Assembly (NCBI GenBank): GCA_963847445.1
Contig: CAWJZV010000007.1
Location: 64,001 to 128,000, forward strand
Direction of reading: 5' to 3'
DNA: 64,000 nt
Source of the DNA: an uncultured delta proteobacterium
GTDB lineage: Bacteria; Desulfobacterota; Binatia; UBA9968
The position numbers and the translations under genes are program-made. The notes under the pieces are model-generated. The model did not search any database and was not told the DNA's origin. It worked only from the letters and a program-made list of their open reading frames with translations. Positions 1-40,370 of the stretch are shown here, piece after piece. Each line of letters starts with the position of its first letter. The first letter of the stretch is position 1.

Positions 1-1344
1 ATCATTTCAGCTGAGCGTAAGCAAAAAGATCAACAGGCCGAAGCCCTGACTGAAATAAACATATCGGCGGTTTACCGCTCGTCCAGAGATCCCGTCTTGC
101 AAGCGAGATAAACCAGTGCCAGTGAAACAAACGCGCTGCTCCAGAACAAAATCGCGATGCTATCGTAGCGCCCGCGGATAATCTTGGGAAAGATCTCGGG
201 CGCGATCACCCCGGCGGCCGAGTAGATGAACAATGAACTTAAAACAACCCAGCTCGCGCCGAAGCCATAGCGGCAGGCGGTCTTGAGAATCGCTCAATAG
301 GCGACTCACGGCGACACCGAGCAAAATCGCCAGTGGTGGAAAGCTCGGCAAAATGTAATGCGGCAACTTGGACTTGGACATCGAGAAAAACAAGATCGGC
401 AAGATCGCCCACAAGATCAACCACAAGGTCCGATCGTCGAGCCGGCGGCGCCAATGATACTTTACCGTCGCCGGAAGCAGGAAGGTCCAAGGCAATAATC
501 CCAGCGGCACGACATAGAGGTAGAAGTACCAGGGACTGGAACGGTCAAACTTCTCAGTCGCAGAAACGGCCGAAATGCTCTTCCAAAAAATAGTAACGGA
601 GATAACCGGGATTATGCCGCTCGGCCAAAATATACCAAGGCATTACGATCAGGAGGAACAGCACAACGCCGGGAAACAAGCGTATCTTTCCCAAGACTCC
701 TCCAGCTGTTGCTAAGCAGGAGATAAAAGAAAACGATAAGACCCGGCACGACCAGACCGACAAGCCCCTTGGTTAGCGTCGCGGCGCCGAGAGCGCCGTA
801 TAAAATCGCACAGGTGGTCCAGTTAGCAGTCGAGCCTGGTGTCGTGGGCAGCGTGGTAAAAAGCGCACAATGCTAGCATGATGAAGGCGGTCAAAGTCAT
901 GTCGAAAATCACCAGGCGGGAGAAGACAAAATAACCCGCGCTGGTGACTAGAGCCAAGACGCTCCACCGGGCTTCCCATTCGCCCCACCAGTGGCGGACG
1001 AAGACGTAGACCATGACGATAGAGCCAAAGGCAGCCAGCGCCGATGGCAATCTAGCCGCCCATTCGGAAACGCCGAAGAGTTTGTAAGAAAGCGCAATCA
1101 GCCAATAAAAAAATATCGGCTTATCGAGCACGGCATGGAAGTTTTCATGGGGCGTGATCCAGTCGTTCAAGACGAGAATCTCGCGCGCCTTCTCGGCGTT
1201 GCGGCCTTCGTCGGGTTCAAACAAGACGGGCCCGCCGAGTCGATAAAACAGAATCAACAGGACAAAGCTGAACAATGCCCAGGGGAACCACCGATCGGCC
1301 GGAGATTGCTGGGCCGGGTCGCTGCCTTTACGTGAAATTGTCAT
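1..1344 (-). CDS. ArnT/PMT-like glycosyltransferase family 39 membrane protein (frameshifted, runs off window start)
   Basis: Pieces 823-1359, 554-763, 160-510 carry GT39 motifs: LFEPDEGRNAEKAREI, DKPIFFYWL, GVSEWAARLPSAL, FFSMSKSKLPHYILPSFPPLA. Confidence 0.85.
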
Positions 1345-1520
1345 TGATGCTGGAGGCACAGAATAACTGCGTAGCTTTCGCCGGTGAATTTACCTAACGC
1401 TGAACTTACCGGACTGTGCCAGATTATCAAGGTAAAGCGCGATCAAACGGTACCTCGAGTCGCCTGGTCGATGATCGATCGCAGAAATTGCGATCGACTG
1501 ATGGCCGCGCGATAACTGAA

Positions 1521-1579: not shown

Positions 1580-2755
1580 ATGACGCGGTACTTCGCCATG
1601 ACCGCCAAATTTTTGCTGGTAACAGTGTTTCTGCTGCAATCAGCCCCGCCAACCTTCGGCCAGCAAGCCATCGCCAGCTTTTACTATGACGAGCGCGGCA
1701 GCGTCGTGCGCCAGGAGCAGGACACCAACGGCGACGGCAAAATGGATCGTTGGACTTATTACAATAAGCCAGGCCAGGTCGAAAGGGTGGAACAGGATCT
1801 CAACTTTGACGGCAAGGCCGACACCATCGCTTACTATGAATCGGGCCAGCCAGTGCGCCAAGAGGTCGCCAGTAAAAACGACGGCCAGATCGACACTTGG
1901 TATTTCTACGACGCGGCTGGCGAGATCGAACGGCGCGGCCAAGACCCGAGCCGTTCCGGCAAGGCGACGGTTTGGGTTTACTACCAGAACGGCCAAGCGG
2001 TGCGCAGCGAGGAAGATAGCAAATCAACGGGCAAGTCCAACCGCACCGTCCATTTGCGCGATGGCCAGATCAGCCACGTCGATGAAGACACCAACGGCGA
2101 CGGCAAGCCGGATAGTTTTTCGTATTATGAGAACGGCCAACTGGTGCGCAAGGAGTTGGACCGCAAGTTCAACGGCAAGATCGATCTCTGGGGTTACTAT
2201 CAAGGCAGCCGCTTGGTCAAACAAGAGGAAGATCTGCGCGGCGACGGCAAAGTGAGCCGGATCGTCTATTTTGACGGCGAGCAGGTTTTACGCCGGGAGG
2301 AGGACACCGGCCGGCGCGGCCGCATGGATATAATCGAGACTTTTGCTCAGGGCAAGGTCGTCAAACGGCTGCGCGACACCAAAGGCACCGGCAAATGGGA
2401 TATCGTTTACGAATTTGACAATAGCGAGCTCGTGCGCGAAGAGCGCGACACCGACGGCGATGGATTTTTCGATCTGAGGATTCTCTACGAAAAAGGCCGA
2501 ATCCGCGCCCAAGAAGCCGACACCAATGGCGACCGGCGCGTCGATGTCTGGGTGAATTTTACCAACGGCGAGCGAGTCGAACAGCTTGAAGATCTAAAGG
2601 CCGAGGGTAAGATAACCGCACGCTATGTTTTCGCAGGCGGACAGGTGATCAGTCAAGAAGCGGTCGCCGATGGCGAACCGCCGCGGGCGTCGCCCGCCTT
2701 CGGAACCGTTGCGGAAGAGCACCGGGCTATGGCGCTGACACCGCCGCCGGCGTAG
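1580..2755 (+). CDS. Exported repeat protein with about 13 units of roughly 24 aa built on D-x-N-x-D-G-K-x-D-x-W (CglC/GltK-like)
   Basis: Signal-peptide-like N-terminus; repeats DTNGDGKMDRW, DLNFDGKADTI, DTNGDGKPDSF, DRKFNGKIDLW, DTDGDGFFDLR, DTNGDRRVDVW, separated by YYxxGxLVRxE strands. Start may be 1598. Confidence 0.85.
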   Translation: MTRYFAMTAKFLLVTVFLLQSAPPTFGQQAIASFYYDERGSVVRQEQDTNGDGKMDRWTYYNKPGQVERVEQDLNFDGKADTIAYYESGQPVRQEVASKNDGQIDTWYFYDAAGEIERRGQDPSRSGKATVWVYYQNGQAVRSEEDSKSTGKSNRTVHLRDGQISHVDEDTNGDGKPDSFSYYENGQLVRKELDRKFNGKIDLWGYYQGSRLVKQEEDLRGDGKVSRIVYFDGEQVLRREEDTGRRGRMDIIETFAQGKVVKRLRDTKGTGKWDIVYEFDNSELVREERDTDGDGFFDLRILYEKGRIRAQEADTNGDRRVDVWVNFTNGERVEQLEDLKAEGKITARYVFAGGQVISQEAVADGEPPRASPAFGTVAEEHRAMALTPPPA

Positions 2756-2830
2756 GCTTTGAGAGCCCGCATTACCGGGTTGCCCAGGGACATTGAAATC
2801 TAGTAGGATCGTGTAGGTTGGCAAAGTTTA

Positions 2831-3952
2831 ATGAGAAGGCTCGCTGCATTCATAATATTAGGTCTCATCGCCCAGGGTTGCGAAACCGCGGTAACCCAGA
2901 ATCCGCCGGGTTCCGGGCAAGTTCCTGGCGCAACTGCCAACCCCCAACAGGCTAAAATCGACAATGATCGACGCTGGGCTCATGCGGTTGAGAGTGCTCA
3001 GAAAGCGGCCTTTCTCGGCGGCATTTTCGGCGGACCCTTCGGTGCGCCGGCAAGCATGGTCATGGGTGTGATCGGCTTCACCTACGGCATGTTTAGCGCC
3101 GATTCGAAGATCGCCGAAGAGAAGGCTCAAGCCCAGGTGCGCTATCAAAGGGAATCCGACAAAGACCGCGTCTTGGAAAGTGCCATCGAGCAGGAAATCG
3201 AACGTCAGCGCGCCTTGGAAAATCAGATTGCCGGAGTGACTGGGCAGCCGGTCAGCACGCAACCGGCGCGCCTGCCACCCCAAGTAAATCAACCGGCACC
3301 GGCCGTGTCGAATCCTCCGCCGCAGTCGGGTAATCCTGCTGGCGCCATCACGGTTGCCCGCACCAGCACCCCGCCGTCGCCGCCGCCGTTTCGCAATGTC
3401 GAAGTCCGCGATATCAACAATGACGGCGTGCCCGATATTTGGATTTACTACAATCCGCAGAAGCCAGGCGAGATTATCCGCCAGGAAGAAGCGACCAAGA
3501 ACGATGGTCGCGTCGATGCCTGGAGCTATTTCCAAGATGGCCAGATGGTCCGGCGCGATGTCGATCGTCGCGGCAGCGGTCGCCCCGACACCATTTATTA
3601 TTACGAGATGGATAAGATCGTCCGTGAAGAGCGCGACGAGACCGGACAAGGCCGCATGACCTATCGCGCAAGCTATCAGAACGGCCGCATTGAGAAAGTA
3701 GAGAAGGATTCCACCGGCCAAGGACGGACGGATCTATGGATCTTCTACGACATTTCTAGAGACGGAGAGATCGTTCTGAAAGAAGAGCGCGACTTAAACG
3801 GTGACGGCGTCGCCGATCTTTGGTCTTTCTACGATAACGGCAGGCTAGTGCGCCGGGATGTCAATGCTCCAGGACTGGAGATCCTGTCCAAACAAGATCA
3901 AGTGCCCCTGCCTACCAGCGAAATTAGACCTCTCGCGACTCCCGGCAGCTAA
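2831..3952 (+). CDS. Lipoprotein: glycine-zipper-like segment, coiled coil, Pro-rich linker, about 6 DxNxDGxxD repeats
   Basis: Lipobox-like LIAQG|C; AAFLGGIFGGPFGAPASMVMGVIG; DINNDGVPDIW ... DLNGDGVADLW. Confidence 0.85.
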   Translation: MRRLAAFIILGLIAQGCETAVTQNPPGSGQVPGATANPQQAKIDNDRRWAHAVESAQKAAFLGGIFGGPFGAPASMVMGVIGFTYGMFSADSKIAEEKAQAQVRYQRESDKDRVLESAIEQEIERQRALENQIAGVTGQPVSTQPARLPPQVNQPAPAVSNPPPQSGNPAGAITVARTSTPPSPPPFRNVEVRDINNDGVPDIWIYYNPQKPGEIIRQEEATKNDGRVDAWSYFQDGQMVRRDVDRRGSGRPDTIYYYEMDKIVREERDETGQGRMTYRASYQNGRIEKVEKDSTGQGRTDLWIFYDISRDGEIVLKEERDLNGDGVADLWSFYDNGRLVRRDVNAPGLEILSKQDQVPLPTSEIRPLATPGS

Positions 3953-3953
3953 A

Positions 3954-4974
3954 ATGACCTACGATTCCTCGTCAAGCGAAGATGCTGGGTTGCTATCGCT
4001 CTTCCGCAGCCCGTTTTTATTGCCGTCGTTGATCTTCCATGGGCTATTATTTCTCTTAGCTTTACGCACAGCGGCGCTGACGATCGTCAAGCCCGCCGCC
4101 GAAACGCCGATCTCTGTGCAACTGATGGAAGTGCGCACTGGTAGCTCGGAAACCAAGAGTATCGGTCCCGGCCAAGGCGCCGGCGGGCCGAAAACGATGC
4201 CCAAGCTTGGTCTGCCAATCCCGCCGCGGCAACAGACCGGCAAACTAGACAGCGGCACCGTCGAGAGCACCGCGCCGTCGACCAAATCAGAAGCCGCTCC
4301 AGAACCCAAAGCCGTCCCATTGCCAGGACCCAAAGTGCTCGCCACCGACAGCCGAGAAACGATCAATGCTAAGGAAACTTCGCCGGATTCTCTGGTGAGT
4401 TTGCCGACAAAGGCAGCGCCATCAAATCTCCCCGGTAGTACTGCCAGTGAACTGGCGCTCACTCAGCAAAGTCTCGCCGCGCTCAAGGGCAGCGGGGAAG
4501 GGCCAGGTATCAAAGCGTTGAAAGAAGGCGCGCAGGTTCCCGGTGCCTTAAAGGGTACGGGGAGCGGCGCCGCGCCCTATGGCGTGCCCGGTGGCACTAA
4601 AGGCGGAACTGGCATCGCCGGTGGCGGCACCGGGATAGGTAGCGGGGGTGGCAGCAGCACCGGCTTGAAAGGCATTCCGGCGGCTGATTTCAATAATTAT
4701 TTCAATCAACTCAAACGCCGGGTTGAGTCCGTGTGGAAATTCCCCGATGGCGTTTCCGGGTTGCAGAAAGGTCGGCGTGGTCTTTACCCTCGACCGCAGC
4801 GGCAAATTGATCAAAGCCGATGTCTTGGAATCGTCAGACCCGCGGCTCAACGCCGGCGCCGTGGAAGCGATGAAAAAAGCGTCGCCCTTCCCGCCCATTC
4901 CGGAGAGCTTGAAAGATCTCGCCAACGAACCGCTGCGCATGCAGTTTACCGTGACCGTTGGCATTCGCGGTTAG
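3954..4974 (+). CDS. TonB/TolA-family energy transducer (frameshift near 4770)
   Basis: N-terminal TM helix with S-x3-H (PSLIFHGLL), Pro/Gly-rich linker, TonB_C-type end (YFNQLKRRVESVW...VVFTLDRSG...ESSDPRLNAGAVEAMKKASPFPPIP). Confidence 0.85.
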
Positions 4975-5063
4975 TCCAGTCCTGGCGCGCGTTGTTCGTG
5001 GCGATTCGTTGAATTAGTTGTCATTTTCGTTCATCTTCGTTGGAGTAACCGGAAAGGTCTTCC

Positions 5064-5692
5064 ATGCAACCGCAAGGTCTGGATCTCGTAGCGATCATTA
5101 ATCAAGGCGCCATCGCCACCTATCCGCTGATCTTGTTGTCGATCATCAGCGTCACCGTCGTATTCGAACGGCTGTGGTCGCTGCGTAATCTTGAGCTCAA
5201 TGACTCTGCGGATCGCCGATTCCCTGCACGAACCGCTCAAGAAGGGCCAGCGCGATCTCGCCGTGGCGATCTGTAAGCAGAACTCGAACTCCCCGGCCGG
5301 CAGAATTTTTTTGAATATTCTCGAGTCACGAAAAGATCTCTCACCCGACCGAGCCAACAGCATCGCCACCGAGGCGATGTTCGAAGAAACCCAGAAGCTG
5401 AAAAAACATCTTATGGATCCTCGGCACCGTCGCCAGCAGCGCGCCGTTCATCGGCTTGTTGGGCACGGTTATCGGCATCATTCGCTCCTTCGAGAGCATG
5501 GCGGTCGCCGGCACCGGCGGGTTTGCGGTCGTCGCTGCGGGTATTTCCGAAGCCTTGGTCGCCACTGCGTTAGGTCTCGCGGTCGCCATCATCGCGGTAA
5601 TTTTTTACAACTATTTTCAGACCCGCATCGGCAGCTTGAATGCGCTTTTTCGCATCCAGGTCGGCAAGGTTCTCCAGAATGCCAGCCTTTAA
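5064..5692 (+). CDS. MotA/TolQ/ExbB proton channel protein (2 frameshifts)
   Basis: [20 protein letters not shown]; [25 protein letters not shown]; [17 protein letters not shown]. Confidence 0.92.
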
Positions 5693-5701
5693 GGTATTGC
5701 C

Positions 5702-6127
5702 ATGGCGATGACACCCCTGGGCGGCGGCGAGGACAACGGCGATATCGTTGCCGAGATCAATATCACGCCGCTCACCGATATCTTTCTCGTCTTGCTGATC
5801 ATTTTCATGATTACCAGCTCGGCGATGATCGAGTCCGGCGGCAAAGTGAATTTGCCCAAGGCGGTGGCGACCCAAACCGAAAGCCGCGGCACAACCGTGA
5901 CTTTGACACCGAAGAAAGAAATCTTTGTCAATCAAAAGAAGGTCAGCGAGGAAAGCTTAGAAAAAGCCCTTCAGGAAGCTCTCAATAATAACGCCAACAA
6001 GACCGTCATTCTCCGCGGCGATAAAGACGTCTTACTCGGCGAGACTGTCAAAGTGATGTCGATCATCAAGCGCGCCGGCGCCACCGAGATCGCCATCGCC
6101 GCCGAAGCCGAACGCAAGACGCGCTGA
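5702..6127 (+). CDS. ExbD/TolR family protein
   Basis: AEINITPLTDIFLVLLIIFMI with the conserved TM Asp; VILRGDK motif. Confidence 0.95.
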   Translation: MAMTPLGGGEDNGDIVAEINITPLTDIFLVLLIIFMITSSAMIESGGKVNLPKAVATQTESRGTTVTLTPKKEIFVNQKKVSEESLEKALQEALNNNANKTVILRGDKDVLLGETVKVMSIIKRAGATEIAIAAEAERKTR

Positions 6128-6160
6128 CAACGGTTAGCGGCGAATTTTTGAGTCGGAGAA

Positions 6161-7453
6161 TTAGCGCGGCGGACCTTCGTTGGACGGCGGTAATTGTTGC
6201 GGCCGGCGCAAGCCTTCTTGCCGCTGGCGCTCGACGTCTCGCTGAATCTCTTCTGGAGTTTTGCCCAATCTGCTCAACTTCTAACTTTAGCTTCTTCTCT
6301 CTTTCCAGAAAGATTTCGAGCTCCAAGGACTTCTGGGTTCCCGACTGGTAGAAGACAGATGATTGAAGCGCGGCTGTTCGAGCCGTCGCTGGAACGCGCC
6401 AGGACATCGATCTGATTCTTGCCCTCGACCACCGGCAATGCCGCCGCAAAAAAACCGTCCGCCGCCAGACGTAAGTTCGCCGCCTTCTGTCCCGAGGTTT
6501 GGTTAACGATCTGGACAAAGTCGACGCCGACGACGGAGATTTGATCCATAATCGCCAAGACATCAGCCGGGCGCGATAGCGGCGTGTAGGTGCCAGCCGC
6601 TCTCCTTGGCGATCCCTTGAACCGCCCAAGGAAAGTTGACGACCTCGTCGCCGAGGCCAAAGACGTGAATTTTAATGCCGGCGCGGCCGGCCAATCGTGC
6701 GGCGTTGACAGTGAGCTGGACATCGGTTTCGGCCACGCCCCGGCCGTCACCGGTCGGCAATGACGGTAAGCCGTCGGTCAAGAAAAACTGCGCTTTGATC
6801 GCATCTTGCCGTTTGGCGCTCTGGCCAAGTCCCAAAAGCTCAGCTGATGCCAAGGCGGATGCCTTCCACCATGTTGGTGCCGCCGTTGGGTCCGGCCCAA
6901 TAGACTTCATCGAGTACCCGGCGCACTTGCTCGAAATCATTCGTCAGCGGCTGAACCAAGCGCCCCTCCTTCGCGAAGGTGATGACTCCGACTCGGGTCG
7001 ATTGCGGATTCAACTGGGTCAGCAAACGGCGCGAAGCGACGACCTCAGCGCCAAGAATTGAATGACGTAAGTTGATCCGCGTTGATTCGAAGGTAGGGGC
7101 GCCCATTCCCATGCCGCGCCGCGAAATCGAGATCTGCGGTTGCAGGCTCGGCGCGCCGCCAAAGAGCATACTTATCCGGGAGTTCGGCTTGATTGGCAAA
7201 TTCGGCGCCGGCGGAGTTGACCGTACTCCCGGAAGTATCGAGAATTAAAAATATATCGACATTGGCCGAGCGTGACATTATCGCTCGCGACTTTGCCGCT
7301 AATCAGGATCGTTTTTTGGTCTTCGGCGATCTGCGAACCGTCTTTGGGCGAAAGGATTTGAATCTTAGGCTCGGCGGCCCGGCCCAGGCTCACCGTGGCA
7401 GCGAGGATAAAGGAAAGGGATAAAACAACCATTCGGGTCGATTTTTCGGTCAT
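6161..7453 (-). CDS. Exported VWA-domain protein with Ig-like flanking segments (several frameshifts)
   Basis: Signal-peptide-like N-terminus; MIDAS elements FLILDTSGST, GGTNMVEGI, FFLTDG; IKIHVFGLG; reconstructed C-terminus ...EGPPR* ends at 6161. Confidence 0.85.
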
Positions 7454-7571: not shown

Positions 7572-8351
7572 ATGATCATCAAGACAACCGCGACAGTGGC
7601 CCTGTTGATTGCGCTCTTCTGGATCAGCCAGTCCGAAGCGCAGTATGTTTTGATTTTAAATAACGGCCGGCAAATTTCCGTACAGGATTACCGTGAAGAA
7701 TCAGGAATGATCAAATTTCACGGGTTTGGCGGCGAGATCGGCATCAGCAAAAGTCAGGTCAAGGCGATTCGCAAGTCTGCCGAGACGGCTGACGAGGGAT
7801 TAACTATACCTGCTTCGATGCCGGAGCCCGTCAACACAGCGGATTCAAGTTCACCGCCTCCCTTGCCATCGGCGACAAGACCGGAACCACCGCTGTCGCC
7901 GGAAGAACAACGAGCTAAGGAAGAGCAGGATTATCAACAGAAACTAATCGACGTCAATGAACGACTAAAAGCGGCAAGGGATAGTTACTCCGAGACGATC
8001 CGTGGCACAACCAGTTCAGACCCGAGTCTGCTAACCACCGAAGCGCAGATGAAAGCGCGCCAAGACGACATCGTTTCGCGCGCGCTCGATGCGCAATACA
8101 AACCCAGCGATCCCACCGGGACGAGACTGGTAACACCGTCACCGTTTAGTACTCTCCCACCAACCATCGTCGATACCCGGCCCCCGCCCGAGGCTACGCC
8201 GCGTTACGACACCACCCTGCCGCAATATACGCCGCGGCAAAAAGAGCTCAGCGAGTTGCGCAGCCAGACCATCGATCTGGAGAAGGAACGAGATAGATTA
8301 ATCGACGAGATGAATAAGAAAAATTTTGGCAGCGGCAAGCTGTTTGAATAA
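7572..8351 (+). CDS. Exported hypothetical protein (small beta domain, Pro-rich linkers, coiled coils)
   Basis: 259-aa intact ORF with signal peptide ending SEA|QY. Confidence 0.7.
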   Translation: MIIKTTATVALLIALFWISQSEAQYVLILNNGRQISVQDYREESGMIKFHGFGGEIGISKSQVKAIRKSAETADEGLTIPASMPEPVNTADSSSPPPLPSATRPEPPLSPEEQRAKEEQDYQQKLIDVNERLKAARDSYSETIRGTTSSDPSLLTTEAQMKARQDDIVSRALDAQYKPSDPTGTRLVTPSPFSTLPPTIVDTRPPPEATPRYDTTLPQYTPRQKELSELRSQTIDLEKERDRLIDEMNKKNFGSGKLFE

Positions 8352-8363
8352 CATTTTTTTCGC

Positions 8364-8806
8364 CTAAAGGCCCGCCACGGCAGCACGCAATCCCAACAGA
8401 TAACTATCCAATCCGAATCCCGCGATTTGCCCGACCGCCACCTCGGCGATAAACGAGTGATGGCGAAATTGCTCACGCTTGTGAATGTTGGAAATATGAA
8501 TTTCGATGGTCGGTAATACCCACGGCGGAAATCGCATCGCGCATCGCCAGGCTCGTGTGGGTGTAGGCCGCCGGATTAATCACGAGGGCGGCGAACTTGC
8601 CGGCCGCTTGTTGAATCCAGGTGACCAATTCGCCTTCGTTATTGGATTGGCGAAAGTCGATTTCCACCGCCAACTCCTTGGCCAGGGCGCGCACTCGTTT
8701 TTCGATCTGCGCCAACGTTAATTTGCCGTAGATATCCGGCTGTCGAGTTCCCAAAAGATTTAAATTAGGTCCGTTGAGAATCAGAATTTTGGGTTTCTTT
8801 CGCCAT
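8364..8806 (-). CDS. aroQ: Type II 3-dehydroquinate dehydratase (frameshifted)
   Basis: [45 protein letters not shown]. Confidence 0.95.
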
Positions 8807-8825
8807 CGTTGATTCCCGCTTTCCG

Positions 8826-9924
8826 CTAGCCGTGGATAACTGTGACTACGCACCGAGCCCGCGCAAGATTTCGCTCGGCACCAACCAGTGAAATCGCGTT
8901 TTGCCGATCCCTTCGCACATCACGAACTTGATTTGCGCCGCCGGCTGCCTTCTTGTCGACTTCCATCGCTTGAATTAAGCCAGTCAGTGAAACATCGCCG
9001 GGGATCTCGCTTGGCAATCCGGCGTTCTCGATCAACTGAACGATGCGCTGCAAACTCTGAGCATCGCAAAAACCGTGGCGCGCCGATAGTAGCCGCAGCT
9101 TTAGCCATGCCGACTGCCACCGCCTCACCGTGGAGAAACTGGGTATAACCTGTGACCGCTTCCAAGGCGTGACCGATCGTGTGACCGAAGTTGAGCACGG
9201 CACGATAATCGTCTTCGCGCTCGTCGACTTCGACGACCCGCGCTTTGATGGCGCAGGAAGTCGCGATCGTCTCGATCAGTAAATCTTCATCGAGCCGCGC
9301 TAGCGCAGCGATTTCTTGCTCAAGCAGGCGAAAAAACTGAGCGTCTTCAATAACACCGTATTTAATCACTTCGGCCAGACCGGCGCAGAGTTCCCGGCGC
9401 GGCAGCGTGCGCAACACCGAGACATCGATCAACACCAGTCTCGGCTGATAAAAAGCACCGATGAGGTTCTTACCGTCGGCGTGGTTGACACCGGTCTTGC
9501 CGCCGACGCTGGAGTCAACTTGGGCCAACAACGTTGTCGGCACCTGGACATAGGGCACACCGCGCAAATAGGTCGCCGCGGCGAATCCTGCCATGTCGCC
9601 GACCACACCGCCGCCCAGCGCCAGCACGCAAGACTTGCGCTCGAAGCGTTGGGCGATCAGGCAGTCGTAAATGGTTTGAAGCGATTTGACAGTTTTGTAT
9701 TCCTCACCGTCAGGAATGAGCACTGGGATAACCGCGAATCCCGACTCCTCGAGCGCGTTGCCGACGGTATCGAGGTAAAGTTGGGCCACGGTTGGATTGG
9801 TCACCACCGCGACTTTGCCGCGCAATCCAGCTTGTTCGAGAAATTCGCCGATGCGTGGCAAATTACCCGCGCCGATATGGATCGGGTAAGAACGGTCGCC
9901 AAGATTGACATTTAAGCTTTGCAT
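8826..9924 (-). CDS. aroB: 3-dehydroquinate synthase (frameshifted near 3' end)
   Basis: [49 protein letters not shown]. Confidence 0.97.
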
Positions 9925-10450
9925 CGTTTTATCGAGACCTGTCCAACCGCTGCGACAATCTGGTCGACCACCTGTTCAAGCGTCAGTTCACTGGTATCGA
10001 CGGATGACATGAGCTTGAGCGTATTTATCGGCCCGGTGTGCCATCAGCTCTTCGATGCGCTCGCGCCGATTGGGTCCTTTGAGCAGCGGTCTCTTGGAGC
10101 TGTTACCCACTCGCGCCATGATTGTCTCCGTCGATGCGGTTAGGCAGACGAGCAGCGTTTTATCTTTGAGCAAGTGAAGACTTCTCCTCGTCCATCACCA
10201 CGCCGCCGCCGGTGGCGATCACATGTCCCGGCTGCTGCACCAAGTCGGCGAGCGTCTGTTTTTCCAATTCGCGAAAGTACGGCTCGCCTTTTAGCTCGAA
10301 GATTTCCCGAACCTTGAGGCCGGCACGCTTTTCGATCATGCGGTCGAGATCGATAAAGCGCCGGCGCAAACGTTTGGCCAGATTGCGCCCCACGGCGCTC
10401 TTGCCCACCGCCATGAAACCGATCAGCGCAATGTTTTGCAGGTCCGGCAA
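9912..10450 (-). CDS. aroK: Shikimate kinase (frameshifted)
   Basis: NIALIGFMAVGKSAVG P-loop, GEPYFRELE, VIATGGG, RPLL. Confidence 0.95.
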
Positions 10451-10452
10451 GT

Positions 10453-11653
10453 TCAGTAGTTTTTGATCTGCTCGAGATAGTTTTCGTAGTTGCGCTTAAT
10501 CTCGCGCAGGGAGTCGCCGCCGAATTTTTCCAGAAACGCTTTGGCCACTTCGAAGGCGACCACACTCTCGCCGACCACCGCTGCGGCCGGTGCGGCGCAG
10601 ACATCGGAACGTTCCACCGAGGCATCGGTGGGTTGCTTCGAACGCGTGTCGACGGATTGCAACGGACTCATCAGGGTCGAGATCGGTTTCATCGCCACTC
10701 GGACGACTAGAGGCGAACCATTGGTCATGCCACCTTCAGTGCCGCCTGAGTTGTTGCTACCGCGATAAAAACCGGTGGGGACGATGCGCGGTGTGCTTTC
10801 GGTCACCATTTTCGCCGGATCGAAAAAATATCTCGTCGTGGACTTGCGATCCACGGCGGCGCGCCATTTCGAAACCGAGGCCGATCTCCACACCTTTCAT
10901 TGCCTGAATGCTCATCAGATGCCTGCGCCAGCCGGCCGTCGAGCTTACGGTCCCATTGGGTGTGGCTACCCAGACCCGGCGGTAGACCGAGGGTGACGAC
11001 TTCAAACACGCCGCCCAGAGTATTGCCTTCTTTTTTGCACTCCTCGATGAGCGCGATCATTTTTTCTTCGGCGTTTTTGTCGGCGGTGCGCACTGGCGAC
11101 TCTTCGGCAGCGTTCGAAGGTCTCACCGTAGGTCAGGCCATCCAGATTGGCGGTAATCCCGCCGAGGGAACGAATATAGCCCATGATGCGAATGCCAAAT
11201 GGCGCGAGCAATTGCTTGGCAAAGGAACCAACCGCGGTTCGAGCGACAGTTTCACGGGCACTAGCCCGTTCAAGAATATCGCGAATATCGGTGCGGTCGT
11301 ATTTGAGCACACCGTTCAGGTCGGCGTGGCCTGGCCGTGGCTTGGTGACAGCGATCTTATCGTCGCGGTCCTCTGGCTTGGCGGACATTTTCTTTGTCCA
11401 GTTTTTCCAATCGCGGTTCTCGATGCCCAAGAGCGATCGGCGACCCCATGGTCTCGCCCCAACGGATGCCCGAACGGATCTCCGCCTCGTCTTTTTCGAT
11501 AAGCATGCGGCCGCCCCGGCCATAGCCCTGCTGACGGCGCCAAAGATCGTGATTGATTTGGGAAATCTGGACAGGGAAACCGGCCGGCACCCCATCGATG
11601 ATCATGGTTAGGCAGGGGCCATGCGATTCCCCCGCGGTGAAATAGCGCAACAT
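10453..11653 (-). CDS. aroC: Chorismate synthase (multiple frameshifts)
   Basis: [53 protein letters not shown]. Confidence 0.97.
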
Positions 11654-11744
11654 GGGCGTATCCTACATTATCACGCCACGCAGTGCCATAACGGGCGGAG
11701 CTACGCCCAAGCCGAATCAAGGATAGGACACAATAGGCAACGAG

Positions 11745-12419
11745 CTAATTACCGACTAGAATGAGTTCAAAATCGCGGTCGTTGCTGAAGCCTTTGAAAG
11801 AGGGATCGTTTTTCACTGAAGCCAGGTCTTTGTAGCCCTGCCGGCGCGCGCGCTCGAGCCATTGCAAGGCCGCTTCGCGGTTACCGTAGTGCGCGTGCAG
11901 GCGCGCCACATGAAAGCTTGCTTGCGGATCCTTGGGATTTATTGCAGCGGCGTTTTCCGCCTTTTGAATTTGTGCCTGGCGTTCTTGAATCGCTGCATTG
12001 TTCTTCCTAGCGGTTGCAAGATTATTTTTAGCGCCGGCATTATTGGGATCGATTCTGCTGGCGCTGTCAAACGCCGCAATCGCCTCATCGTAGCGCCCCT
12101 GCTTGTCGTAGAGCACGCCGAGGTTATTGTAGGCGAAATAGCTGTTCGGTTGGATTTCTGTAACGCGTCGATATTCAGCGATCGCCTCGTCCGTCGAACC
12201 CAGCCGGTCGTAGGCGAAGGCCAAATGCAAGCGTACCTCTGCGTCGGCGGAGTTTTTTTGCAGCGATTTTTGCAGCTCGGGAATGGCTTCGCGTAGACTG
12301 CCCTGGCGAAACAGCTTTAATGCCTGCACCCTCGGTGAGATTTCCGGAACTTCGGACTGGGCACTCGCGGGGCCAATTGCAATTAGCAGGACGAGGACAA
12401 CAGCACCAGAGAGTTGCAT
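11745..12419 (-). CDS. Exported tetratricopeptide-repeat protein
   Basis: Signal peptide MQLSGAVVLVLLIAIGPASA; TPR helices (AYNNLGVLYDKQGRYDEAIAAF); ATG overlaps the pilY1 stop (TGATG). Confidence 0.88.
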   Translation of the reverse strand: MQLSGAVVLVLLIAIGPASAQSEVPEISPRVQALKLFRQGSLREAIPELQKSLQKNSADAEVRLHLAFAYDRLGSTDEAIAEYRRVTEIQPNSYFAYNNLGVLYDKQGRYDEAIAAFDSASRIDPNNAGAKNNLATARKNNAAIQERQAQIQKAENAAAINPKDPQASFHVARLHAHYGNREAALQWLERARRQGYKDLASVKNDPSFKGFSNDRDFELILVGN

Positions 12420-15324
12420 CAAAACACCTCGCGCCAACCGATTAGCTTGCGTAGCGCGACCAGCGGTATTTGGGTCGTCGAGATCTGCTGGTTCGTCGTA
12501 CCAGATATTACGTAGGGTGTTCCCTGATTGCCCTGCTGACTCATGATAATGATCGGTTTGGACGGAATACCCGATCCGATAGTCTTGGCCAGCGTTAGAG
12601 CCGCGGTTCCGGCAACAGCAACCGCCCCAGTCGTCAAGTTGAGCGCGGCGTCACCGGTGGTCATGTTGATCGAGTACAGCTTAGCATCACCGCCACCGCC
12701 GCCACAGACCGCCGCGGTCGACGGCGTGAAACTGGTAAAAAGCACCACGGAATTAAACACATCCGCCGATGCTAGAATTTTTTCATTGCTATTCAGGGGC
12801 ACATACCAGCCTTGGGTAACCGTCCCAGTCCCGCTGCTGACATTGGTCAAACTGGATTCTGTCAAGGTACTCCCATTGGCCATGGTCGTGTCTTCCTTGA
12901 TCCCATAGAAACGATTCGACGCCGTGCTGTTCGGGTGATAGCGGTCGCCGGAGCCGATGAACAGCCATAGGTTGCGATTACCGTCATAGGCGAGCGTCGG
13001 CGGTGAATACATTCCTTGGGCGGGATAATACTGTCCTGCGGCCGGTGGATTAGCTTGACTCGATGCCGCGGCGAATAATCGTTTGCCCATCCAGCAATCG
13101 GTATCGGTGGTTGACGAACAGTTCTTCACCGTTCCACTGACAAGGGACGCCGCTTTGGACATATCGAACTTCCAAATTTGCCCGCCGACGTCGGCGATAT
13201 AGACTCGATCGATATAACCGTCGCCATCGAGATCCACCGCCGTCGGCGCGGCCGGGAGACTAAAATTCATCTAGGCAGCGTCGGCCGAGTTCGCCACGGT
13301 CGACGAGAATTCCCAAAGCTTGGAGCCGTTCGATAGGTCGATTGCAAAAAAGGCTTCGCTGACGACGTTGCTGCTTCCGTAGTTGGCGAACGTGCTATCG
13401 AAACCGCCGCCGACAAAGGCCACCCATTTGTCGGTGCCATCGTCATTTTGATTTTGCCAATCGCCGGCTCCGACCAGGTCTCGCCCAAGGCGGGCATCGG
13501 TTGAAGGTCCACAGATACAGCGGATTGGTGGTGTCGGTGATGTCGAGAGCATAGTAATTCGTTACCGCCGCGGCGCTGACCGAAGATCACGATGGTTTTC
13601 CAGCTGCCGCCGATCTTGACATCGGCAGCAATCGGACTGGAGTCGACCTGTATTCATGTGCGCCCGAAGCGTGCCGTCATGTCAACAAGATCGTCGAGGA
13701 CATCGGGCGGGATGAAAGCCCCACAGCTCAGCGCCGTCGCTTTCTTTAAAAGCGTGCAGCATGCCGTCGTTGGCCCCAGCGATCAGCACCGACGTCCGAC
13801 TCGCTTGAGCGGCTTTAAAGGTATTGTAGGTTGAGTCGGATGACGCCCGGAAGGGCGGCGAAACCAAGCACGGGGTCGAGTGAAATATGTCGCCGAGCTT
13901 CCAAGGTCGATCTTCCGTTGGTGATGCCATCGCCATCCTCGTCGTTGGTGTCCGGCGTACCACGGAGATAATTGATCACGCTGTTCTTTTCTGTGCTGAC
14001 CTGAGACGCCCAACAAGAGTATCGGTAATAGCCGAGTTGCTAGTTGTGAAACTTTCCCTTGCGCCACTGACTACAGTGTAGATGGTTCGACTTGCCGGCG
14101 TCTTGGTGCTAAGCGCCTGACCGGCGTCCCAGGCCGGGGTCCCGGAAGGCAGTCCGTTAACGTCAACGGGTATCAGACCATTGGAGTCACGGTTATAGGC
14201 TTTCAAGTAACCCTGCCAGAATGGGCGCGACGGGTTGGACTGGAATGACGCGAGATACGCTCGGCTGGTGCCGCTCGTTCCAGTGGTCGGCACCACCGGT
14301 GTCGCGAAGGAAAAAGTCGCCGCCATGAATCTGGCTGATCGCATTCTCAAGCGCTTGTTCCAGCGCCGTTTCGGTGTCGCGGTGTAATAACTGCCGCCGC
14401 CATTCTTGGCCGTGCGTTTTGAGATTCAGCGTTCCGCCAGCGTGCAATGTCCGCGCGACAGACCGAAGCCTACTGTATGAACGATGACATTCTGCTTACC
14501 GGTGAAACGCCATGGAATGGTCCTGGGTGTAGCGATTGGTCGCTTCCGTGTGAACGTCCAGCGAACCGTTTTGCTGGCCGTCGGTCATGAGAATAACAAA
14601 GTTAGGCTGACAATAATATTGGATTGGGCTACTGTAGCCCGTGTAGGTTCCCTTGAAATAATTACCGGCATCCCGCAATTGCTCGCCTAGCGGCGTGCTA
14701 CCATTTGGCGTGAGGCGCATTGACGGCGGTCAATAATCGTCGAGATGCTCGAACCGATCTCAGCGACCATCGTCGCGCCATTTGGGCTATACTTGAATTT
14801 CATCACGCCGAAGCGAACTCCCTCCACGTTGGTAATTAGATTGTTAACGACCCGTTTCGCTACCACGATCTTTTTTCATCCGCCTGGCAAGGCGTACATT
14901 TCGAATAGTTCAGATAGTTGCCGACAAAGAGATCTACACTCGATCCGGAGATTTTTCCACTCCAATAGCCAGCGGAGTTGAGAGCCGTCTGCGCCGACGA
15001 GCTGCTCACAGCGCTGACCGTACTGGCATATTCTTTGTAGCAAGGTGTGCTACTGGGCTTACAAGACTTTTTCTTAGTATACTTTCGATAGACCTTGGCC
15101 GTGGTGTAGGTGTTAGGCGTTGTGTAGGTCGTGGAGGAGTTGTAACCGCTCGCCGGCACTTTGTCATCCATACTGCCGGAGTCATCGAAAAGAATGAGGA
15201 CGTTCGGCGCAATGTTGCTGCCGAAGATATCGCTATCGTCCGCCCTAGCCATGCGAACATGACTGACATTTAGGAAGATAATGCAAACGATCTGGACCAA
15301 CGCTAAAGCTTTTCTGATTTTCAT
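12419..15324 (-). CDS. pilY1: PilY1/PilC type IV pilus tip adhesin (vWA plus beta-propeller; multiple frameshifts)
   Basis: PNVLILFDDSGSM, TPLGEQL, CQPNFVILMTDG, LGDIFHSTP, GANDGMLHAF, LGETWSEP, DLDGDGYIDRVY Ca-binding loop, terminal WRE; follows minor pilins. Confidence 0.92.
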
Positions 15325-15335
15325 AAATGAAACTC

Positions 15336-15821
15336 CTACTGGGCGACTGGACCGTACAGTGCGAGGGCTTCGACCTCGCGCGCAGCCGATTCATTGCCTA
15401 CCGATGGACACCCCGATGCGAGACTATAAGTGCCGGTAACATTCACTTGGTACTGATAGAACGAATAACCGGAAACATTGTAGCCGGTGCCGGACCCGAG
15501 CGAGTAACCCACTTCGTTCTTCATAGTCGGAGTCATGGACGGAAGTGTGCCATCCCGTTTGCCGAACCGGTAACAAAGATTACTCCCCAAAGTCACCGGC
15601 GTTGATGACGGCGTCGCGCCGGGAGTGACCGACAGGGCGATCGCCAACATGCCCGTGTCGGCAGCGTTGAACGCTCGAGAACCGGTTCGATAATTCATCG
15701 CCACTTTGGTGTTGATCCCGCTAAAAATGAGGCCAGCGCTGATTACCGTGAGCAGGATCGCCATCACCATCAACACGACGACGAGGCTGATTCCTTGATT
15801 ATTGTTGAGCCTGGCTTTCAT
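15336..15821 (-). CDS. pilX: Minor pilin PilX-like
   Basis: Prepilin G|ISLVV lacking Glu5 as typical of PilX; AFNAADTG motif. Confidence 0.85.
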   Translation of the reverse strand: MKARLNNNQGISLVVVLMVMAILLTVISAGLIFSGINTKVAMNYRTGSRAFNAADTGMLAIALSVTPGATPSSTPVTLGSNLCYRFGKRDGTLPSMTPTMKNEVGYSLGSGTGYNVSGYSFYQYQVNVTGTYSLASGCPSVGNESAAREVEALALYGPVAQ

Positions 15822-15859
15822 GCTTTGCCCTCGATAGGTTTTCGCCCGTCCCGTGACGG

Positions 15860-16501
15860 TCAGACTCCATGGTTCCGCAAATCCGCGGTCAACGTCATGG
15901 TCACCGGGGAGCCGGTAAAGTTGCTGTCGGTACTCTTCGGCGCGACCGTCAGCGCGATGGTGATCTTCTGCACGGTCTTGTAATTTGACGACAAAGTCCC
16001 ACTACAACCGGACGGTACGTTGGCTGAGACACAGTAGGGCGCTGGCGCGCTGCTCGTTGTCTGCTGCGGATAATAGGTGAACTCTACCGCCGTGACGTTT
16101 CCATCCGAAAGTGCTACGCCGTTGCGCGTGACGTTCATATTGGCGCTATCGTAGGCAAAGGCGACGATCTCGTCATCACCGCTGCACGCGCCGTTGCTGT
16201 TTTTGTCGTATTGAATGGTTATACCCGTGGCCGTTGCCGCCGTGATCCCACCCGTTGCATCGCACGCGGTGGTTGGAAAATATCCGGCGTTCCGGACTTC
16301 TCGCACCACCATGTCGGCCACCGTAAGCGCGTATTCGTTCGCTTCCATTTTGCTTTCTTGGCCTTTGACCGTATGGGTTTGGGCGCGAAACAAGCTGCCG
16401 ACACCGGCCAACACGAACAGGGATAACCCCATGGAGACCAGAAGTTCCGTCAGGGTAAATCCCCGCTGGTTTTTGAGCGCTAGCGATGGCCATTTTGTCA
16501 T
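15860..16501 (-). CDS. pilW: Minor pilin PilW-like
   Basis: Prepilin QRG|FTLTELLV; EVRNAGY motif. Confidence 0.88.
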   Translation of the reverse strand: MTKWPSLALKNQRGFTLTELLVSMGLSLFVLAGVGSLFRAQTHTVKGQESKMEANEYALTVADMVVREVRNAGYFPTTACDATGGITAATATGITIQYDKNSNGACSGDDEIVAFAYDSANMNVTRNGVALSDGNVTAVEFTYYPQQTTSSAPAPYCVSANVPSGCSGTLSSNYKTVQKITIALTVAPKSTDSNFTGSPVTMTLTADLRNHGV

Positions 16502-16531
16502 TCGGCTGAGGGTAGAAATTCATTGGGCTTT

Positions 16532-16936
16532 TCACTGTGCGACCGACGAGGAGAATGTCATACTCTGAGCCGTGTAGTCCGTCCAATTGATTTTGACATC
16601 GATCTTATTCATACCGGCAGCTGGAGAGTTCGCTGTGATCATCCAACTTCGAGTATACGTGAAGCCTGACGCGGCCTGGGTATCAGAACACCCAGACGTC
16701 GAATAGTTTGGGCATGACAAGGCGGTAAAAGCTGTGTTTTTCATCGCTCTGAGTTCTTCCAACTTCGCCTGCGCGAGATTGATCGCAGCGGCGTTCAAAT
16801 GACTGTTGTTATTGGTGCGCGTGATCGTCACCGTACCGACGGCTAGACCGAGCACCGCAAAGGTGAAGATGGTCAAGGCGACCAATATTTCCACCAGGGT
16901 GAATCCCGCTGAACTCTTGAGTTGTTTGATCTGCAT
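16532..16936 (-). CDS. pilV: Minor pilin PilV-like
   Basis: Prepilin AG|FTLVEILVAL; AINLAQAKLEELR. Confidence 0.88.
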   Translation of the reverse strand: MQIKQLKSSAGFTLVEILVALTIFTFAVLGLAVGTVTITRTNNNSHLNAAAINLAQAKLEELRAMKNTAFTALSCPNYSTSGCSDTQAASGFTYTRSWMITANSPAAGMNKIDVKINWTDYTAQSMTFSSSVAQ

Positions 16937-16953
16937 TGGATGGTACGAGTACC

Positions 16954-17421
16954 TTAGGTGCAAACGCTATCCTGAATCTTAATCCTACCGATCACCGTCA
17001 CGCAGACCCACTTGCTCGTTGTGCCATTGCTCAGGCGAATCGTCGTCGCTGCCGGCACCGTGCCGCGAGTTTGAAACTGCGGGGAAGTCCCAGGAGGCGT
17101 TATGGTTATACCTTCCGGGATGGCCATGTTGCCGCCGTCGTCAGCGCAGGTACCGTTACAGCGCTGAACGATGTAGGTCGACGTCGAGAAATTGATCTGA
17201 TGGGGTATGCTTTGGGCGATCGCTTTCATCCGCACCTGCTGCAATTCCGTGGCAACCTGGCGTGCTGCGTCATTAAGCCGAAGCCTCGGTAGGGTACTTC
17301 TAAAAGCCGGGATCGCGATGACCATCAACAGCCCGCCTACGCCCAGAGTCGCCATCAATTCGATCAGCGTGAAGCCACGACCATTCGTCGCGCCTTGAAA
17401 GATTCGCAGCCTCTTTTTCAT
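16954..17421 (-). CDS. fimU: FimU/FimT (GspH-like) minor pilin
   Basis: Prepilin RG|FTLIELM; LNDAARQVATELQQVRMKAI; C-terminal GRIKI. Confidence 0.85.
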   Translation of the reverse strand: MKKRLRIFQGATNGRGFTLIELMATLGVGGLLMVIAIPAFRSTLPRLRLNDAARQVATELQQVRMKAIAQSIPHQINFSTSTYIVQRCNGTCADDGGNMAIPEGITITPPGTSPQFQTRGTVPAATTIRLSNGTTSKWVCVTVIGRIKIQDSVCT

Positions 17422-17479
17422 ACCCAAATTTCGCTTCGAGTGTCGTCGGTCGATCATTGGTTTCTCGATCCACCGAATG

Positions 17480-19853: not shown

Positions 19854-19854
19854 C

Positions 19855-20436: not shown

Positions 20437-20437
20437 T

Positions 20438-40274: not shown

Positions 40275-40370
40275 GTGAATGACTCCTCGCTAATATCTCT
40301 AGTAAATCCGCGGTGATTTTTCCACCGGGGACTGGTCCTGTCCGGACAGCCTGTGCTATTAGCCGGGGGC

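Follow-up and report, generated by a model that had tools for sequence, protein, structure and literature searches.

Ton and Tol-Pal are the two textbook routes by which Gram-negative bacteria bring inner-membrane energy to the outer membrane, and the catalogue of other tasks performed by these motors, Agl-Glt gliding and motor-coupled VWA proteins among them, is only now being drawn up. The motor of the gliding machine, AglRQS, is composed of one TolQ-like subunit (AglR) and two TolR-like subunits (AglQ and AglS), and its VWA protein CglB is a lipoprotein. CglC/GltK of this machine is a lipoprotein of 172 amino acids (aa) without known domains (PMC4488436); its His-tagged construct weighs 17.5 kDa (PMC9946355). 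The vWA "force transducers" reported in 2025 (Mol Biol Evol, PMC12204202) are tethered next to TolQR-like motors and take the place of TonB/TolA, their helix carrying either the SHLS/His motif or a TolR-like Asp. Herein, we analyzed a cluster of six genes in a stretch of 64,000 nucleotides (hereafter the window; C7:64001-128000) from the assembly of an uncultured delta proteobacterium of the class Binatia (7.19 Mb, 48 contigs), which encodes two DxNxDG-repeat proteins (rep1 and rep2), a TonB/TolA-type transducer, an ExbB/TolQ-ExbD/TolR motor, and a VWA protein with a metal-ion-dependent adhesion site (MIDAS). A preliminary description of this DNA had proposed that the cluster encodes a reduced Agl-Glt-like surface machine.

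The cluster looks like an undescribed variant of the Ton/Tol-type machines and not like a relative of the Myxococcus gliding apparatus. Its best explanation, which we hold with about even confidence, is a self-contained Tol-like trans-envelope force transducer with ribbon and VWA partners of its own and without a receptor. As in Tol-Pal, a TolQ/TolR-type channel is combined with a transducer whose S-x3-H helix is joined by a long linker to a TolA-like C-terminal domain, and in both systems the same locus encodes a lipoprotein and two periplasmic proteins, one soluble and all-beta and the other with a coiled coil. In contrast to Tol-Pal, the module lacks the TolB propeller and the OmpA-type, peptidoglycan-binding Pal and has hairpin-ribbon and VWA proteins instead; a full Tol-Pal locus is present elsewhere in the genome, and the module scores below the tolQ/tolR/tolA equivalog cut-offs. 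With Ton systems it shares the same three inner-membrane parts, and relatives of its repeat proteins occur in the tonB-exbB-exbD cassettes of another order, some of them beside receptors, whereas the module itself adds a lipoprotein and a VWA protein and has no receptor in the window or in nine relative loci. It also resembles the vWA force transducers in that a VWA gene is genetically coupled to a TolQ/TolR-like motor, in one family of relatives (f2) even directly preceding exbB-exbD, but it differs from them in that neither a His nor an Asp is conserved in the helix of its VWA protein and in that it has a TonB/TolA-type transducer as a protein of its own. Partners of the hairpin-repeat, MORN, EF-hand, calcium or DUF6802 kind are not mentioned in PMC12204202.

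Gene content and co-inheritance of the cluster

As summarized in Table 1, five tightly spaced plus-strand genes span 1580-6127, with the transducer gene starting two bases past the rep2 stop, and the VWA gene is convergent with them. A check by open reading frames and by Pfam and NCBIfam reproduced the six genes at the positions, in the order and on the strands given by the preliminary description, and the motifs that it had named in the transducer, ExbD, the VWA protein and both repeat proteins proved to be real, as detailed below. The absence of a receptor, TolB and Pal was likewise borne out, as family scans of the window returned no match to a TonB-dependent receptor, Plug, TolB_N or OmpA/Pal. 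Of the six genes, three are interrupted in this assembly, a point taken up with the frameshifts below, and family scores are given for an intact orthologue or for the window fragment.

The preliminary description had made its proposal depend on the conservation of the gene set in related metagenome-assembled genomes (MAGs), and such conservation was indeed observed. In the set of relatives, rep1 was present in 24 of 41 genomes (the window's own included), with 20/24 in the genus, 3/5 in family f2 and 0/11 in family f3. Ten loci of 15 kb were taken and nine of them were mapped (seven from the genus and two from f2), the tenth, of G005 (L028), being left out; the locus analyses also omit L029, which is the same record as the contig of G003. 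All seven genus loci showed intact genes in the arrangement ArnT-like (-), rep1-rep2-tonB-exbB-exbD (+), VWA (-), orfY (+) and aroQ-aroB (-). In family f2 (the two mapped loci and L036), tonB-rep1-rep2 lie on one strand and VWA-exbB-exbD on the other, with the VWA gene directly upstream of exbB-exbD and its stop codon 5-9 bases from the exbB start. The f2 motor belongs to another lineage, its ExbB having 268 aa with an N-terminal extension and its ExbD being 29-30% identical, so the partnership is not with one specific motor clade, and the gene set stays together across both the rearrangement and the change of motor type. The full set also occurs in five more loci from public MAGs, whose records bear the titles Deltaproteobacteria, Candidatus Binatia or, once, Chloroflexota. 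No receptor was found in the nine relative loci by tblastn gene maps, with Pfam scans covering L019 and L024.

The members of the set also occur together. Of 40 relatives, G005 among them, 22 had both rep1 and the VWA gene, 16 had neither, and two had one without the other (MAGs with 60% and 67% completeness), and the transducer was found in 20 of the 22 doubly positive relatives and in none of the 16 doubly negative ones (0/16); these counts are descriptive because the genomes are kin. Presence and absence were both found within genus g1 and within genus g2, where G029 carries the set and no member of it occurs in the closed genome G025. The gene set is gained or lost as a unit.

A further gene, orfY, encodes a protein whose N-domain resembles DUF903/YgdI-YgdR (below cut-off) and is followed by a Pro-rich region and, at the C-terminus, a coiled coil. 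The gene was syntenic in 9/9 of the relative loci inspected and in 4/5 of the further cluster-bearing loci, the exception being L033, whose sequence ends inside the aroQ match, and it is duplicated in G029. Judging from this synteny, orfY may be a seventh member of the module.

Component proteins and the wider ribbon-motor linkage

The ExbB/TolQ protein matched MotA_ExbB with 112.8 bits for an intact orthologue and 71.4 bits for the window fragment (cut-off 22.9), and the ExbD/TolR protein matched Pfam ExbD with 102.9 bits (cut-off 25.4), its transmembrane residue Asp26 being invariant in all 12 aligned sequences, that of the window included. The transducer consists of a transmembrane helix with the S-x3-H motif, a Pro/Gly-rich linker of ~200 aa and a divergent C-terminal domain, and Ser25 and His29 of the motif, which reads PSLIFH in the window, were invariant in 10/10 sequences. 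Its intact orthologue matched TonB_2 (E 9e-9, 35.8 bits, cut-off 22), and the transducer passed NCBIfam tonB_Cterm (35.2 bits vs cut-off 27.1); the TonB_C model gave E 9e-5 and 23.3 bits on the orthologue, below the cut-off of 24.6, and 26.7 bits on the window fragment. The best NCBIfam models for the motor pair were tolQ and tolR, each below cut-off. For ExbB, tolQ scored 110.5 bits (cut-off 221) and exbB 80.8 bits (cut-off 206), and the other Tol equivalogs likewise remained below cut-off (tolR 94.3 vs 127.3, tolA_full 26.1 vs 59.45).

A survey of the motor loci of the genome found six MotA/ExbB matches and exactly four ExbD genes, one for each non-flagellar ExbB/TolQ locus. Contig C14 carries two flagellar MotAB pairs, and C15 a complete TolQ-TolR-TolA-TolB-Pal-CpoB locus with the sole TolB_N match of the genome and a TolQ that passes the tolQ cut-off (232.4 bits). 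An ExbB-ExbD-TonB set stands beside a receptor and iron genes on C34, and another beside a Plug receptor and NikR on C45. The survey thus revealed that the motor of the module is neither the housekeeping TolQRA nor one of the receptor-linked ExbBD pairs, but an additional motor; since the housekeeping set resides on C15, the objection anticipated in the preliminary description, that the motor might simply be the housekeeping Tol, does not apply. The genome has three Plug receptors, each adjoined by a strong TonB_C gene (75-88 bits), and as a further difference from Ton the module transducer reached 25.7 bits in the same genome scan, near the 29.7 bits of the genome's TolA. In hhalign comparisons, the C-terminal domain of the transducer matched the genome's TolA with a probability of 96.4% (E 1.4e-9) vs 73% (E 3e-5) for the receptor-linked TonB of C34. 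Furthermore, in an ExbB tree of 20 rows, whose branches are long and whose deep nodes are open, the genus motor grouped with the genome's TolQ at moderate support (85/91), and the two receptor-linked ExbBs paired separately. The motor and transducer thus appear to lean closer to Tol than to the receptor-linked Ton sets of the genome. This is a lean and not a membership, because structure comparisons do not separate ExbB from TolQ and favor TonB for the transducer, and because the equivalog scores are below cut-off.

The VWA protein comprises, in order, an N-terminal hydrophobic helix (a signal peptide or an anchor), an Ig-like domain, the VWA domain, an Ig-like beta-sandwich, a coiled coil and a Pro-rich tail. 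An intact orthologue matched Pfam VWA with 34.9 bits (cut-off 23.8) and VWA_2 with 30.4 bits (cut-off 27), and the MIDAS residues D71, S73, S75, T191 and D225 (D-x-S-x-S, T, D) were invariant in 9/9 orthologues. In the same nine aligned orthologues, neither a conserved Cys or lipobox after the N-terminal helix nor a conserved His or Asp in the N-terminal hydrophobic segments was found. The structure predicted from nine sequences was poor (pLDDT 42.7) and unusable for a fold search. Public metagenome and MAG data hold 913 homologues; 120 of these that were listed are labelled VWA domain-containing, von Willebrand/Glucodextranase, "Mg-chelatase subunit ChlD" or hypothetical and nothing else, and the named organisms among them are Candidatus Binatia or Deltaproteobacteria. 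Because this member alone has more than 900 such homologues, with the named ones among the 120 listed from Binatia or Deltaproteobacteria, the module is probably common in the environments of that little-studied lineage.

The repeat protein rep1 has an N-terminal signal sequence, followed in its orthologues by an AxA-type cleavage site and the conserved start QQPVASFYYDE. Twelve repeat units were picked out, spaced by 22-26 aa with one gap of 48 aa, with the consensus D-x-N/K-x-D-G-K-x-D-x-W-x-Y-Y-x-x-G-x-x-V-R-x-E. AlphaFold2 with a 31-row alignment predicted a signal helix and 28 strands in 14 hairpins (pLDDT 90.9, pTM 0.78). A Foldseek search with this model returned Rhs/YD and teneurin shells and engineered OspA sheets (E down to 4e-10, TM-scores 0.14-0.35). 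A VIA search, which is independent of Foldseek, placed OspA single-layer sheets on top (Z 11.2 and 10.4), ahead of a TarM/GtfA-type hairpin domain (Z 9-9.9), the CPAP G-box (9.1), MORN1 (8.9) and junctophilin (8.1), where Z values in this range are common for repeats and the identity to the fold matches is 6-15%. The model thus depicts rep1 as an elongated single-layer antiparallel sheet with open edges and not as a propeller, in the same fold class as the MORN-type, OspA and CPAP G-box sheets (VIA Z 8.9-11.2) and those of junctophilin, and with a repeat of 22-26 residues. At the level of families, DUF6802, MORN_2 and Lsa25.6 were the sole models registering on the repeat proteins, all of them under cut-off (for rep1, MORN_2 20.5 vs 29.6, DUF6802 18.5 vs 27 and Lsa25.6 57.5 vs 150; for rep2, Lsa25.6 28.7 vs 150). 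To our knowledge, none of the MORN, OspA, DUF6802, MORN_2 and Lsa25.6 families has a known tie to Ton/Tol motors.

Every repeat has a D-x-N/D-x-D-G loop of the EF-hand/DxDxDG kind, which in rep1 and rep2 recurs once per repeat and is not a feature of MORN, and some rep1 homologues carry precomputed Pfam EF-hand_5 and Dockerin matches on these loops. From this loop motif, the repeats probably bind Ca2+. The second repeat protein, rep2, comprises a lipobox with Cys17, a Gly-rich hydrophobic segment, a coiled coil, a Pro-rich linker, five to six repeats and a tail. Cys17 and the tail (...RRDVxAxGLEILSKQ) were invariant in 8/8 orthologues. The repeats, which occupy the C-terminal half, are hairpins of the rep1 type, and rep2 aligned to rep1 by hhalign with a probability of 99.8% (E 7e-30). 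A glycine zipper was considered for the Gly-rich segment and rejected, as the Pfam glycine-zipper families gave no match at E up to 1. With a profile of ten orthologues, the repeat family was found to comprise 4225 cluster representatives at E<=1e-3, 1649 at 1e-10 and 105 at 1e-30.

Members of the repeat family were also found beside exbB-exbD motors elsewhere. A locus titled Desulfobacteraceae encodes, in order, tonB, a repeat protein of 576 aa, exbB and exbD, and this repeat protein is 28% identical to rep1 (E 1e-28). In the Desulfobacteraceae-related order, a homologue of it (~580 aa) was present in 23/81 genomes, and the repeat gene was directly upstream of exbB-exbD in 14/14 loci returned (from 14 genomes, the query's own included). 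A tonB gene adjoined the cassette in 10 of the 14 short loci by tblastn and in all seven longer contexts scanned by Pfam (eight were fetched, L058 being omitted from the scan), and the TonB of these cassettes is canonical (TonB_C E 1e-9 to 1e-17). The neighbors in the eight contexts included a TonB-dependent receptor in three, CbiMQO in one and Slp in two, with DUF4198 beside one of the latter; neither the lipoprotein copy nor the VWA protein was found in these eight contexts (Pfam E up to 1e-4 or 1e-7). Within a sample of the window's own phylum, 7/151 genomes had a repeat-family match at 1e-10, and in seven loci from six other genomes exbB came right after the repeat gene in five. The ribbon family thus looks like a dedicated companion of ExbB-ExbD motors, because the repeat gene adjoins exbB-exbD in 14/14 and 5/7 loci. 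The three motor lineages concerned (those of the genus, of f2 and of the other order) did not form one clade in the small ExbB tree. Not every member of the family is linked to a motor, since L034, L035, L037-L039 and L041 encode repeat proteins that are rep2-like or weaker, and no motor gene was found in their vicinity.

Several of these loci had other unusual neighbors. A giant HEAT-repeat protein of 1150-1400 aa, an unusual companion for a Ton motor, is encoded directly after exbD in 4/8 of the Desulfobacteraceae-type cassettes (L040:10633-14079, L056:11123-14695, L057:3417-6860 and L062:10853-15088). In the public MAGs with L034 and L035, a rep2-like protein stands alone beside glucose-6-phosphate dehydrogenase and ion-transport genes, and in a Polyangiaceae MAG a weaker repeat match (L038:10273-11529) lies ~1.2 kb from a MoxR ATPase of the MoxR-vWA-beta-propeller ternary-system type.

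Full-text literature searches, in which the titles and abstracts of the listed papers were judged, found no description of a linkage of MORN/hairpin-repeat or YwqK proteins to ExbB/ExbD/TonB; they returned no paper on DUF6802, and a search on ExbB/ExbD with von Willebrand terms gave nothing on a ribbon-motor linkage. The cluster therefore appears to add to the known motor systems a conserved, co-inherited partner set not found described, namely calcium-loop beta-ribbon proteins and a MIDAS-VWA protein. The linkage of ribbon genes to exbB in the 14/14 and 5/7 loci suggests, as a hypothesis, that the ribbons serve these motors as a fourth subunit or as a new partner that receives the force, and this wider linkage is the part most worth following up. 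We tentatively raise the possibility that the DxNxDG ribbons are an unrecognized class of dedicated periplasmic partners of ExbB/TolQ-ExbD/TolR, yielding in the present lineage a new machine driven by the proton-motive force. If so, a single ribbon protein would be the fourth subunit of the Ton cassettes in Desulfobacteraceae-related lineages, and the lineage of the window would have duplicated the ribbon gene, lipid-anchored one copy and added a MIDAS-VWA protein, with the transducer becoming TolA-like. The outcome would be a trans-envelope machine driven by the proton-motive force, beside Ton, Tol-Pal and Agl-Glt, in which force acts on Ca2+-stiffened beta-ribbons and not on a receptor plug or Pal.

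Proposed mechanism and competing explanations

On the basis of the gene content, the motifs, the rep1 fold, the conserved and jointly inherited gene set, and the repeat-family linkage to exbB-exbD described above, we propose a mechanism for the cluster as a Tol-like force transducer, in which the contacts between the proteins, the membrane of rep2, the Ca2+ binding and the output are what we infer. ExbB-ExbD, as expected from its family, would turn proton flow via the ExbD Asp residue into movement. The transducer, judging from its conserved motif, would dock on the motor by the S-x3-H helix and span the periplasm on its linker of ~200 residues, so that its C-terminal domain may engage rep1 and/or rep2, plausibly by beta-strand addition to an open sheet edge or to the conserved tail of rep2. 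Of the two ribbons, rep2 would be held by its lipid on a membrane and rep1 would be a soluble 28-stranded ribbon probably stiffened by Ca2+ bound in the DxNxDG loops. The MIDAS metal site of the VWA protein may in turn bind an acidic ligand presented by a partner or by the envelope. By analogy with Tol-Pal, the most likely output would be mechanical work on, or positioning of, an envelope-anchored complex rather than nutrient import.

Several observations weigh against this Tol-like reading. The grouping with TolQ in the tree is moderately supported, and the TolQ, TolR and TolA equivalog scores are all under their cut-offs. Against solved structures, ExbB matches ExbB and TolQ equally (61 bits each), and for the transducer profile TonB chains (E 1.7e-4) are the better match, ahead of TolA chains (E 0.1). 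Little weight can be placed on the receptor-less window, because Ton genes and receptors frequently lie apart; on contig C6 of this genome, a receptor and a TonB stand without adjoining ExbBD. The f2 motor comes from another ExbB/ExbD lineage, and the kinship of the relatives means that the co-occurrence counts overstate independence. The repeat protein of the other order sits in cassettes with a canonical TonB, with a receptor nearby in 3/8 and cobalt, Slp or DUF4198 genes in others, which points to an ordinary uptake setting for that branch of the family. Finally, three genes of the cluster are broken in this assembly.

Many of the same observations would suit an ordinary Ton uptake system with periplasmic accessories, in which the motor energizes receptors encoded elsewhere and the repeat proteins act as scaffolds or binding proteins, an explanation that is the main rival and that we regard as rather unlikely. 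It would account for the repeat family inside the tonB-exbB-exbD cassettes of the other order (14/14 loci) with their receptor, cobalt, Slp or DUF4198 neighbors, and it could draw on the C6 Plug receptor as a client; the transducer passing the tonB_Cterm cut-off and having TonB chains as its best solved relatives would likewise be expected. However, each of the three Plug receptors already has a TonB_C neighbor of its own, scoring far above the module transducer, and the module's C-terminal domain and ExbB stand closer to TolA and TolQ of the genome than to TonB and ExbB of its receptor-linked sets. Moreover, neither the VWA protein nor the lipoprotein copy was found in the eight contexts of the other order at the Pfam thresholds given above, and the nine relative loci yielded no receptor in their gene maps.

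The gliding or adhesion machine of the preliminary description, in which the motor would correspond to AglRQS, the transducer to GltG/J, rep2 to GltK and the VWA protein to CglB, appears very improbable. There is a formal parallel of parts, as PMC9946355 and PMC4488436 describe a proton-motive-force motor of the TolQR kind together with TonB_C-type proteins, a lipoprotein and a MIDAS-VWA protein, and VWA proteins are known partners of such motors (PMC9946355 and PMC12204202). In addition, a protein atlas puts 2/3 of the nearest VWA clusters under the label "Myxococcota". Nevertheless, the locus has one ExbD where the gliding motor has both AglQ and AglS, its VWA protein has no conserved lipobox in contrast to the lipoprotein CglB, and the cluster contains neither GltA/B/H barrels, including those of the OmpA-like GltA/B type, nor tetratricopeptide-repeat (TPR) proteins of the GltC/D/E type. 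No sequence link to GltK or CglB was found, the comparison being by the names of homologues and not with M. xanthus sequences: none of the 98 short repeat-domain homologues and none of the 120 listed of 257 longer ones was named CglC or GltK, and none of the 120 listed of 913 VWA homologues was named CglB, a check that is weak because most database proteins are unnamed. The CglC protein, at 172 aa and with no known domain (PMC4488436), also differs from the repeat lipoprotein. Furthermore, the genome has flagellar genes, type IV pilus genes are present in the window, and the repeat family elsewhere is tied to uptake-type Ton cassettes. What stands of the earlier interpretation is thus a conserved extra module driven by the proton-motive force and distinct from the housekeeping Tol; the kinship to Agl-Glt finds no support in the number of ExbD genes, the VWA lipobox or the Ton-cassette linkage.

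The cluster as assembled also contains frameshifts, on which the preliminary description was silent. Compared with the closest relative G003 (90% identical over the region), there are nine unpaired +1 insertions, at 4766 in the transducer gene, at 5189 and 5410 in exbB, and at 6272, 6360, 6597, 6844, 7167 and 7276 in the VWA gene, as well as a compensating pair in exbB at 5318/5343. The transducer, exbB and VWA genes are consequently not open as assembled, and rep1, rep2 and exbD are free of frameshifts. Other genes of the assembly are similarly split (PGK, UPF0182, glycogen synthase and a receptor, and in the window aroC and aroB), and the six genes are all intact in G004 and other relatives. 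In contigs from four public runs (four studies, 92-99% alike), which were compared at sites from 4766 to 6273 and represent close strains from samples other than that of the window, the extra base was absent in 3/4 at 4766, 3/4 at 5189, 4/4 at 5319, 4/4 at 5410 and 2/3 of the covered runs at 6273. The frameshifts are thus probably assembly errors, because housekeeping genes are split alike, the relatives are intact and the public-run contigs lack the extra bases. The pattern itself, with every insertion being +1 and none of the nine falling in a homopolymer run, looks like a systematic assembly or consensus error. That the cluster would be a decaying remnant with nine real frameshifts, as their unpaired occurrence in 3/6 genes outside homopolymer runs might suggest, is scarcely credible given the split housekeeping genes, the public-run contigs mostly without the extra bases at 4766, 5189, 5410 and 6273, and the intact genes of the relatives.

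Feature coordinates and neighboring genes

Table 1. Features of the cluster and its flanks, in window coordinates
Feature	Position	Strand	Basis	Remarks
rep1	1580-2755	+	open frame	exported, 391 aa, ~13.5 repeats of 24 residues
rep2	2831-3952	+	open frame	lipoprotein, 373 aa
TonB/TolA-type transducer	3954-4974	+	Pfam	339 aa in relatives; +1 insertion at 4766
ExbB/TolQ	5064-5692	+	MotA_ExbB, E 7.5e-20	208 aa in relatives; +1 insertions at 5189 and 5410
ExbD/TolR	5702-6127	+	Pfam ExbD, E 1.8e-29	141 aa, intact
Terminator-like hairpin and T run	6122-6139	+	consensus scan only	at the exbD stop codon
VWA protein	6161-7453	-		427-428 aa in relatives; six +1 insertions
orfY	7572-8351	+		exported, 259 aa; divergent from the VWA gene
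ArnT/PMT_2-type glycosyltransferase	160-1359	-		upstream of and divergent from rep1; ~580 aa, fragmented in the window

The terminator-like site listed in Table 1 is one of 12 such sites in the region vs a shuffle mean of 10.1, which is no excess, and promoter counts were likewise not above those of shuffled sequences. Upstream of rep1, the ArnT/PMT_2-type neighbor is syntenic in the genus, and a Cdc48-like AAA ATPase stands in its place in f2.

On the other side of the cluster, a minus-strand stretch at 8473-17457 lies downstream of a pilM-N-O-P-Q type IV pilus cluster at 17829-22652 (-), which was recognized by Pfam PilM_2, PilN, PilO, PilP and Secretin. Following the pil genes on the same strand are five open reading frames without a family match (14863-17457), a further one without a family match at 12422-13270, and a TPR protein at 11748-12437, and then aroC, aroK, aroB and aroQ; the aro genes are conserved neighbors of the module in every relative inspected. 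Scans of the window with Rfam and for tRNA detected tRNA-Pro alone. Farther along, two chromate-transporter (ChrA-type) genes were found at 40353-41531 and 44589-45818 (+), less than 5 kb apart.

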